DNA from: an uncultured Rickettsiales bacterium
GTDB taxonomy: Bacteria; Pseudomonadota; Alphaproteobacteria; Rickettsiales; CAYLHV01
Reading direction: 5' to 3'
Assembly (NCBI GenBank): GCA_964383745.1
Contig: CAYLHV010000010.1
Location: 234-64,233 of the forward strand
Length of the DNA: 64,000 bases
The first letter of the stretch is position 1. Each line of letters starts with the position of its first letter. Shown here one piece after another: positions 53,159 through 53,890 of the stretch. The notes beneath the pieces are model-generated. The model had not been told where the DNA came from, did no database searches, and saw nothing but the letters and a program-made list of their open reading frames with translations. Both the position numbers and the translations under genes were made by a program.

Positions 53159-53890
53159 ATGTTTTTAAAAATGTCTAAAAGGGAGTTCCTGAAACTTGCT
53201 TTTTTGTCTTCAACTTTTATTTTTATTGGGAGCAAATTTATGTCTGCAAATGCAAAACAAAATTTAATATATTCTAAAGAAGCAAATCAAGAAAAATTTC
53301 CTTTTGAATTGCCTCAATTGCCGTTTGGGAAAACTGAATTGGAGCCGCATATGTCAGCTGCCACTTTCGATTATCATCATGGAAAACACCATCAGGCTTA
53401 TGTTACGAATTTGAATAAAATGATTGAAGGGACTCATTTCGCTTCTAAATCACTTGAGCAAATCATTTTGGAGTCATGGGGAAAAGAGCAGGGGATTTTT
53501 AATAATGCCGCTCAGATCTGGAATCACACATTTTTCTGGCATTCAATGAAACCAAATGGTGGTGGAAAACCGAGTGGCAAAGTGCTGGATTTGATTAATG
53601 AGTCTTTTGGTAGCTTTGAAAAATTTGTGGAAGAATTTAAAGCTGCTGCAACGAGTCAGTTTGGAAGTGGTTGGGCTTGGCTTGTCCTTGAAAATGGTAA
53701 ACTTGCGGTGACAAAAACGTCAAACGCTGAATTGCCAATGCTTAAAGGCCAAATTGCGCTCCTAAATTGCGATGTTTGGGAACATGCTTACTATTTAGAC
53801 CATCAAAATAGAAGACCGGACTATGTTACGACTTTCTTGGAAAAATTGGTTAATTGGGATTTTGCTGAGAAAAATCTAAAATTAGCTTAA
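53159..53890 (+). CDS. sodB: Fe/Mn-family superoxide dismutase with N-terminal export signal
   Basis: [36 protein letters not shown]. Preceded by a 32-aa leader [36 protein letters not shown] lies 6 nt before ATG 53159. Confidence 0.9.

Follow-up and report, generated by a model that had tools for sequence, protein, structure and literature searches.

An iron-type superoxide dismutase gene with a predicted lysine-arginine Tat leader and a conserved putative internal start site

The 64,000-nucleotide stretch of contig CAYLHV010000010.1 analyzed here (the window) carries on its forward strand a sodB-like gene for a superoxide dismutase (SOD) of the Fe/Mn family, the catalytic part of which is preceded by an apparent signal peptide. 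The locus raises the question of the compartment in which the enzyme acts. Superoxide does not cross membranes, and the periplasmic role in its removal is usually filled by the Cu,Zn enzyme SodC. Since superoxide is membrane-impermeant, a bacterium that faces it from outside, whether a host or the bacterial respiratory chain is its source, needs a periplasmic dismutase. A first-pass annotation had proposed that the leader belongs to the twin-arginine translocation (Tat) type. Here, we ask what the leader is, by which route the enzyme would be exported, and at which start codon or codons its translation may begin.

The enzyme, its leader and the upstream start codon

The open reading frame (ORF) at 53147–53890 (+) encodes 247 amino acids (aa) when read from its first ATG and 243 aa when read from ATG 53159. 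In the 247-aa form, the Sod_Fe_N domain (PF00081) covers residues 53–135 with a score of 101.7 bits, and the Sod_Fe_C domain (PF02777) covers residues 142–243 with 127.7 bits; both values are far above the cut-off. The catalytic domain begins at residue 53, in line with the earlier estimate of about 50 residues into the ORF. The four metal ligands are present, namely the histidine of YHHGKHH, the histidine of WNH, and the aspartate and histidine of DVWEH, and they align with those of iron SOD (FeSOD) structures. The top matches in the PDB are FeSODs, and the alignment with them begins only at residue 52–53. The NCBIfam model for FeSOD gave 254.9 bits and the model for manganese SOD (MnSOD) 159.6 bits; the equivalog cut-off of the FeSOD model, 348, was not reached. 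Judged from the sequence, the product is most likely an iron-type superoxide dismutase.

The stretch 53159–53254 corresponds to exactly 32 leader codons in frame with the complete Fe-type SOD, and the next residues are KQNL. The basic n-region with S-K-R-E-F-L-K, the hydrophobic core and the A-N-A motif that the first-pass annotation had described were all found at these positions (Table 1). The leader contains no cysteine and is thus not that of a lipoprotein. The hydrophobicity of its h-region lies inside the range of homologous leaders with two arginines (RR), with a best 10-residue mean of 2.07 in comparison to an RR mean of 2.17. The GSKFMSA segment at the c-region has its counterparts in the GSKWMPA and GTKFISA of RR homologues.

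Three ATG codons (53147, 53159 and 53171) are candidates for the upstream start. All three retain the motif, so the choice between them is immaterial to the main question. The duplex with the anti-Shine-Dalgarno sequence amounts to −3.3 kcal/mol at both ATG 53147 and ATG 53171, and the stronger element serves ATG 53159 (Table 1). Public gene calls also take 53159 as the start (P0001, 243 aa). The N-termini of the nearest leader-bearing relatives, MFLTKR..., parallel the MFLKMSKR... of the sodB-like precursor.

Table 1. Features of the sodB-like locus, with positions in the window.
Feature	Position	Strand	Details
Shine-Dalgarno-like GAGGTG for the upstream start	53149–53154	+	4 nt before ATG 53159; anti-Shine-Dalgarno duplex −7.3 kcal/mol
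sodB-like gene, long form (243 aa + stop), predicted FeSOD precursor with signal peptide	53159–53890	+	Pfam and PDB alignment; identical to P0001
Predicted n-region, net charge +3, with S-K-R-E-F-L-K at 53174–53194	53159–53194	+	6 of 7 positions match S/T-R-R-x-F-L-K
Predicted h-region; with the next Ser, a 13-residue uncharged stretch	53195–53230	+	best 10-residue Kyte-Doolittle mean 2.07
Predicted c-region SKFMSANA, K at −7, A-N-A signal-peptidase I site at 53246–53254	53231–53254	+	predicted cleavage after 53254
Internal Shine-Dalgarno-like GGGAG	53228–53232	+	7-nt spacer to in-frame ATG; −6.5 kcal/mol, about as good as the upstream element
Internal ATG in the same frame (Met28 of the 243-aa form), at which a leaderless cytoplasmic isoform of 216 aa may start	53240–53242	+	conserved Met; matches the start of "short-extension" leaderless SodB
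Linker between predicted cleavage site and catalytic domain	53255–53302	+	homologous to the N-terminal extension found in Rickettsiales-type SodBs that lack a leader (P0030, P0078, P0105)
Sod_Fe_N alpha-hairpin domain, HHGKHH and NNAAQIWNH (Fe-type Gln)	53303–53551	+	Pfam E = 3.1e-29, profile 2–82 of 82
Sod_Fe_C domain, DVWEHAYY metal ligands	53570–53875	+	Pfam E = 2.1e-37, profile 1–102 of 102

Relatives of the leader and the route of export

Among the best 120 protein matches, together with two further cluster members, we found 51 unique leader-bearing homologues. In the protein search, many FeSODs of 235–272 residues covered 96–98% of the query, and each begins with a leader built in this manner. 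The unique leader motif segments (n = 50) comprise 26 with RR, such as SRRNFCKS, TRRGFLKT and SRRKFLKG, and 24 with lysine-arginine (KR), which hold this pair in the same register, as in TKREFxK, SKRDFLK and TKRQFLK. The replacement of R-R by K-R (in P0005–P0122) is spread over several separate clades and leaves the rest of the motif intact. Such a share of KR is far above the usual view of natural KR Tat signals. Within the KR group, serine or threonine stands at −1 in 24/24 leaders, phenylalanine at +2 in most of them, and lysine is frequent at +4.

The relationship of the window leader to these sequences was scored with a position-specific scoring matrix (PSSM) built from the 26 RR-bearing homologous leaders only, with both RR columns masked. 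The leader of the sodB-like gene obtained +15.9 bits, and the leave-one-out scores of the RR leaders ranged from −6.5 to 48.7. The null distribution, 23,260 sites in the translations of the long ORFs of the window, had a mean of −37.3 (sd 10.4), in which the highest value at any other [KR]R site was 0.44. The score of the leader, to which the c-region match contributes, indicates that it is homologous to the true RR leaders of orthologous enzymes. On this comparison, it is more than a chance feature.

The coding status of the leader was assessed in L083 and L085, the closest pair of relatives available. Upstream of their starts, a stretch of 60 nt is unalignable (16/60 identical). Within the leader codons, the differences at positions 1, 2 and 3 number 2, 1 and 7, respectively, with five synonymous and two nonsynonymous. 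Judging by this pattern, the leader is translated and under purifying selection in this lineage.

Two curated hidden Markov models (HMMs) of Tat signals, PF10518 (cut-off 22.7 bits) and TIGR01409 (cut-off 16.7 bits), recognize some members of the family. The RR homologue P0058 passes both (23.5 and 25.4 bits, respectively), and so does the KR homologue P0054 (24.8 and 18.9 bits); the RR homologue P0083 passes TIGR01409 only, with 23.6 bits. In addition, a Tat-type motif combined with a lipobox (GLGAC, LLGAC, VAASC, LLSCC or AIGAC) was observed in the proteins P0090, P0095 and P0096 and at the loci L009 (~9965–10726) and L013 (~1202–1927), the FeSODs of which are predicted to be Tat-exported lipoproteins. 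Apparent N-terminal leader matches in L026, L032, L051, L064 and L077 turned out to be tblastn over-extensions, and the genes there are leaderless.

Several ideas about the evolution of the leaders were rejected. A mutational bias towards AT as the driver of the change from arginine to lysine found no support at the resolution of an amino-acid proxy for AT-richness (Phe, Tyr, Met, Ile, Asn and Lys relative to Gly, Ala, Arg and Pro), which was 1.24 in KR and 1.24 in RR proteins (p = 0.31). A higher hydrophobicity that offsets the lysine, as in the model of Huang and Palmer, was not supported either, as no difference was seen between the Kyte-Doolittle means (p = 0.20 and 0.10). The leader-bearing SODs do not seem to be monophyletic but are interleaved with leaderless forms on a neighbour-joining (NJ) tree, which is unbootstrapped, based on the short catalytic domain and suggestive only. 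On the same tree, RR and KR alternate repeatedly, and the remainder of the motif is kept.

The anatomy of the window leader and its homology to RR leaders make a KR-variant Tat signal peptide its best reading, which we favour with moderate confidence. The KREFL segment fits the TatP pattern RR.[FGAVML][LITMVF] once lysine is allowed at the first position. The first-pass statement that KR variants function in some Tat substrates is borne out by the natural Salmonella TtrB signal and by the arginine-to-lysine mutants of SufI and TorA, which are Tat-competent (PMC1182353). The leader in the window resembles these signals in having lysine for the first arginine within an otherwise retained consensus. 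The TtrB, SufI and TorA signals are Tat-dependent but isolated cases, whereas in the SOD family KR is found in 24/50 leaders.

A number of observations weigh against a Tat assignment. In place of two arginines, the motif has K-R (53177–53182), so that it falls outside the strict definition of a Tat signal, and the leader fails RR-requiring rules (TATFIND and default TatP) by definition. PF10518 and TIGR01409 are silent on it, even at E ≤ 10. The 14 residues after the motif include seven Leu/Ile/Phe and two Gly/Ala, which is a Sec-like composition, and the Leu/Ile/Phe content of KR leaders as a group is higher than that of RR leaders (4.4 vs 2.3, p = 0.0004, no phylogenetic correction). Lysine in place of either arginine is generally poorly tolerated, and Tat transport is usually reduced (PMC7317946). 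Of the Bacillus subtilis proteins that bear RR or KR, most proved to be Sec-dependent, and the motif by itself is a poor guide to the route in that species. Finally, a tblastn search with E. coli TatA, TatB and TatC queries revealed no tat gene in the window (best E = 3), a result that is uninformative for so short a piece of DNA. The Tat assignment of the first pass thus holds in anatomy and in homology to RR leaders, and it is weakened by the silence of the HMMs and by the Sec-like h-region.

These points could be accommodated if the leader is, or has become, of the Sec type. In such a case, the precursor would pass unfolded through SecYEG and gain its metal in the periplasm, and K-R-x-F-L-K would be a leftover of a Tat signal. 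An h-region rich in Leu, Ile and Phe and poor in Gly and Ala, the silent HMMs and the B. subtilis precedent all speak for this explanation, as does the SecA-dependent periplasmic SodA on record (cited in PMC8047123). The first pass had reasoned that the export of a Fe/Mn SOD fits Tat rather than Sec; this premise is not absolute in view of that SodA and of a periplasmic MnSOD cited in the same source. We nevertheless consider a Sec-type leader unlikely. The invariant S/T at −1 and the frequent F at +2 and K at +4 persist in 24 otherwise diverged KR leaders, which suggests continued selection by the Tat receptor, since Sec has no reason to keep them. The repeated interconversion of RR and KR on the tree without loss of the remaining motif points in the same direction. 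A lysine at +1 of the mature protein disfavours Sec, and the mature enzyme predicted here has Lys at +1 after A-N-A. Similarly, a basic residue in the c-region is a Sec-avoidance feature (PMC7317946). Such a residue occurs in 88% of the RR leaders and 67% of the KR leaders.

Another explanation is that the hydrophobic segment stays uncleaved and serves as a signal anchor, which would hold the enzyme to the inner membrane on its periplasmic side, an arrangement reported of some cyanobacterial MnSODs and of Rieske proteins. Tat-inserted N-terminal anchors are known, e.g., in Rieske proteins (PMC7317946), and membrane attachment is used within this SOD family by the lipobox-bearing members listed above. 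In the window, however, the uncharged stretch measures only 13 residues, few for a transmembrane helix; a textbook A-N-A site, which has a helix-breaking Gly-Ser before it, comes next, and the leader has no Cys for lipidation. An anchor therefore seems highly improbable to us. Taken by itself, export of the long form by one route or another is very probable on sequence grounds, and we regard its dependence on Tat as moderately to fairly probable.

Almost all alphaproteobacteria possess tat genes, and scattered genes have been reported in Rickettsiales (PMC3305326). The same Tat probes that found nothing in the window matched tatB and tatC near leaderless sodB (within ~10 kb) in L002 (12093–13325) and L023 (19079–20249), and in L054 (18745–20312) they matched tatA as well. 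In L021 (19329–20165), from a metagenome-assembled genome (MAG) labelled Pseudomonas marincola, only tatC was matched; L002, L023 and L054 are alphaproteobacterial MAGs. As the probes succeed on these four loci, the negative result for the window is real. The vicinity of tat genes and leaderless sodB is probably plain synteny. No other Tat substrate was found in the window when the N-termini of all ORFs were scanned for a Tat-like motif followed by a hydrophobic stretch; apart from the SOD, only internal start codons of uvrB matched.

A conserved putative internal start site

The first-pass annotation had also considered a translation start downstream of the leader. This has turned out to be partly justified, because ATG 53240, inside the leader, has a conserved Shine-Dalgarno (SD) sequence of its own; the best upstream SD sequence, on the other hand, serves ATG 53159. 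The members of the nearest leader-bearing subclade (P0012, P0029, P0038, P0041 and P0068) keep the internal Met, and in P0029, P0038, P0041 and P0068 an AGGAG or AGGAGG lies 7–8 nt upstream of it. In an alignment of five sequences, GGAG and ATG are invariant while the encoded residues vary (GS in the window; GE and GG).

The conservation extends to the whole set of leader-bearing proteins, 50/51 of which keep a Met where leaderless relatives begin. In 43/51 proteins, this Met stands at −3 to −5 from LPxLPY, which is the exact start site of 41/71 leaderless homologues. In seven further proteins it is found at −22 to −28, as in the "short-extension" leaderless SodBs, and in one it is absent. Three RRR-type leaders (Competibacteraceae and one alphaproteobacterium) are without an internal Met.

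At the level of DNA, the internal ATG is preceded at a distance of ~6–8 nt by GGAG, GAGG or, in L087, the weaker GAGAAG in 13/13 loci for which DNA was at hand. The duplex energies of these internal SD sequences range from −4.9 to −10.9, with a mean of −6.7. In the background of 1,035 other internal ATG codons, the mean was −1.8 (sd 2.5), and 7.6% reached −5.9; the difference is significant in the Mann-Whitney test (p = 1.4e-8), although this value overstates the independence of the 13 loci, which share ancestry. The residues encoded at the internal SD sequence vary from locus to locus (GS, GE, GG, RR, EA and ED), and the nucleotides persist. Where the Met is at −4 or −5, the arrangement GAGG-N6-ATG, made of a GAG codon for Glu and the following G, is present in 5/6 loci, L087 having GAGAAG. 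The SD-like elements at other internal Met codons are built from other codon pairs. These comparisons indicate that the SD sequence and the ATG are conserved beyond what the protein sequence needs. A further in-frame ATG at 53351 (the Met of EPHMSAAT in the catalytic domain) also has a moderately SD-like stretch, with −5.6 kcal/mol; a start at this position would truncate the domain, and a chance match is the most likely explanation.

Since ATG 53240 has its own conserved SD sequence, a leaderless product is probably made too. Whether this ATG is actually used as a start we judge, from the sequences compared, to be evenly balanced. It should be considered that the internal SD sequence and ATG could be an evolutionary relic or a translational pause site.

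One may go further and suppose that only the short form matters. The main start would then be ATG 53240, the product would be an ordinary cytoplasmic SodB, and the leader stretch upstream would be decaying. The internal SD sequence nearly equals the upstream one (−6.5 vs −7.3 kcal/mol), the catalytic domain groups with the leaderless "short-extension" SodBs on the unbootstrapped NJ tree, and the interleaving of leader-bearing and leaderless forms suggests frequent loss of the leader. The KR pair and the lack of an HMM match could be read as signs of decay as well. On the other side, the leader ORF is intact and has its own SD sequence at ideal spacing. Moreover, the +15.9 bits were obtained outside the RR pair, with the c-region Lys and the AxA site included, which is unexpected of decaying non-coding DNA, and the leader is under purifying selection in the relatives L083 and L085. 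We therefore find it rather improbable that the short form alone is of importance.

The observations on both start codons can be brought together in one scheme. The long product would start at ATG 53159 and carry a cleavable KR-type Tat signal peptide. The folded, metal-loaded FeSOD would be recognized by TatBC and carried across the inner membrane, and cleavage after A-N-A would release a periplasmic FeSOD of ~211 residues, which would clear superoxide outside the cytoplasm. Ribosomes that start at GGGAG-N7-ATG (53228–53242) would yield a leaderless enzyme of 216 residues, kept in the cytoplasm, and one gene may in this way supply both compartments. In evolutionary terms, and on the most straightforward view, a Tat leader would have been added upstream of a pre-existing sodB, with the ancestral ribosome-binding site (RBS) and start codon still under selection. 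As the loss of the leader would leave a working gene, the interleaving of leader-bearing and leaderless forms on the tree would be explained. That a widespread clade of FeSODs consists of genes with two starts, an upstream one with a Tat leader (RR or, in roughly half of the lineages, KR) for the periplasm and a retained SD sequence and ATG for a cytoplasmic SodB, is a tentative proposal, which we hold to be plausible but somewhat short of probable.

Known systems, genomic setting and significance

Exported SODs of the Fe/Mn family are already known, and forms like the present one are found in many bacteria; what is modestly new here is the KR motif together with the retained internal start. 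The MnSOD SodA2.1 of Chroococcidiopsis sp. CCMEE 029 has a Tat signal predicted by bioinformatics only, with a SignalP 5 score of 0.62 (PMC8193680). The protein from the window is similar to it in being an SOD of the Fe/Mn family behind an n-h-c signal peptide, in which a motif of the twin-arginine type is combined with a basic c-region residue and a signal-peptidase site. Unlike SodA2.1, which is of the Mn type and has a true RR, it is of the Fe type, has KR, belongs to a Rickettsiales-like bacterium and keeps an internal start.

A periplasmic FeSOD of Desulfovibrio vulgaris Hildenborough was reportedly described by Lumppio and co-workers in 2001. Like the proposed product here, this enzyme is reported to be an iron SOD that carries an export signal at its N-terminus and resides in the periplasm; it differs in the phylum of its host. 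We know of no internal-start architecture in the D. vulgaris FeSOD. A periplasmic Sod of the Desulfovibrio type is mentioned in PMC6491731.

Two further cases are cited in PMC8047123, namely a periplasmic MnSOD in Aeromonas hydrophila (Leclere 2004) and, in Rhizobium leguminosarum, a periplasmic SodA that depends on SecA (Krehenbrink 2011). As cited there, both are SODs of the Fe/Mn family that are active outside the cytoplasm, like the proposed product of the window, and they imply that Tat is not the sole route for this fold. The Rhizobium SodA is reportedly exported without a cleavable Tat-like leader. The Cu,Zn enzyme SodC, which is periplasmic and Sec-exported, has an unrelated fold and metal. 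It shares with the FeSOD described here the role, proposed for the latter, of removing periplasmic superoxide, which is a functional analogy and not family membership.

For the E. coli genes speA, bamA, ivy and yghG, internal starts have been put forward that remove a signal sequence (Meydan et al., bioRxiv 10.1101/520783). The locus in the window resembles the pair SpeA-74/SpeA-70 in that a putative in-frame start, equipped with an SD sequence and placed in or just after the targeting sequence, is proposed to keep some of the enzyme cytoplasmic. Initiation in speA was mapped by ribosome profiling, whereas the putative internal start of the SOD is known from the comparative conservation of the SD sequence and ATG alone, and its predicted targeting signal is of the Tat type. 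A literature search for internal-start dual isoforms of SODs found no description of such a case, and superoxide dismutase is not mentioned in a 2026 review of N-terminal proteoforms.

With regard to its setting, the gene lies in DNA with a GC content of 37.9% that also contains the chromosomal genes uvrB, tyrS, RNase J, nusA-infB, ileS, gpsA, mgtE, grpE and ychF. The isoleucyl-tRNA synthetase (24366–27509, +) has a DUF5915 C-terminal domain, and we take it to be the type-2, eukaryote-like form of the enzyme. Of the eight ankyrin-repeat ORFs in this DNA, four follow the SOD gene directly as a tandem series (54264–62193, +), and others lie at 6322–8760 (+), 9506–11632 (−) and 45586–47484 (+). 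The ORFs 54264–55466 and 55485–57722 share a non-ankyrin C-terminal region of ~170–190 residues without a Pfam match, in which long identical runs, SPNIEIFRESFEKIGGVEGILQKVLKILGE and SLDDAQFALDFVNYDYFQRVKDVRDFCVKENDG, occur; the two look like a recently duplicated effector family. The closest named matches of the UvrB protein are MAGs labelled Rickettsiaceae, Rickettsiales or Alphaproteobacteria, with no more than 66–69% identity. The source of the DNA is probably an ankyrin-rich, host-associated, Rickettsiales-like alphaproteobacterium.

In the window, an ORF for a 700-aa ABC ATPase/permease (51024–53126) stands between the sodB-like gene and the genes further upstream. Only 32 nt separate its end from the sodB start, and the two may be co-transcribed. 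A hemN-like gene and a 260-aa ORF without a Pfam match are common to the upstream regions of L087 and the window (50219–53126 in the latter). In several alphaproteobacterial loci, a divergent gene of the SQS_PSY family lies directly upstream of the leader-bearing sodB (L084, 2074–2919; L087, 9031–9840; L088, 488–997). No conserved partner gene was found beside the leader-bearing SODs in eight loci. A scan for promoters and terminators gave counts at chance level and no terminator.

The defence against host-derived superoxide that the first-pass annotation had suggested for an exported SOD is plausible, but it is not specific, as leader-bearing SODs also occur in lineages not known as endosymbionts, e.g., Competibacteraceae and alphaproteobacterial MAGs with a GC content of 0.55–0.64. 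The results do not overturn current understanding. They suggest that a Rickettsiales-like bacterium may carry out periplasmic dismutation with an iron SOD that has a Tat-type leader, and they draw attention to a large and little-discussed family of enzymes. The dozens of natural KR leaders that stand beside RR orthologues form a comparative set for the tolerance of TatC towards lysine, and the conserved internal RBS suggests dual localization from one gene. If the two starts are both in use, the split between compartments would be tuned by the relative strengths of the RBSs and perhaps by the weakening of RR to KR. One gene would then serve both compartments of a host-associated bacterium like the source of this DNA, in which it may be the only sod gene.

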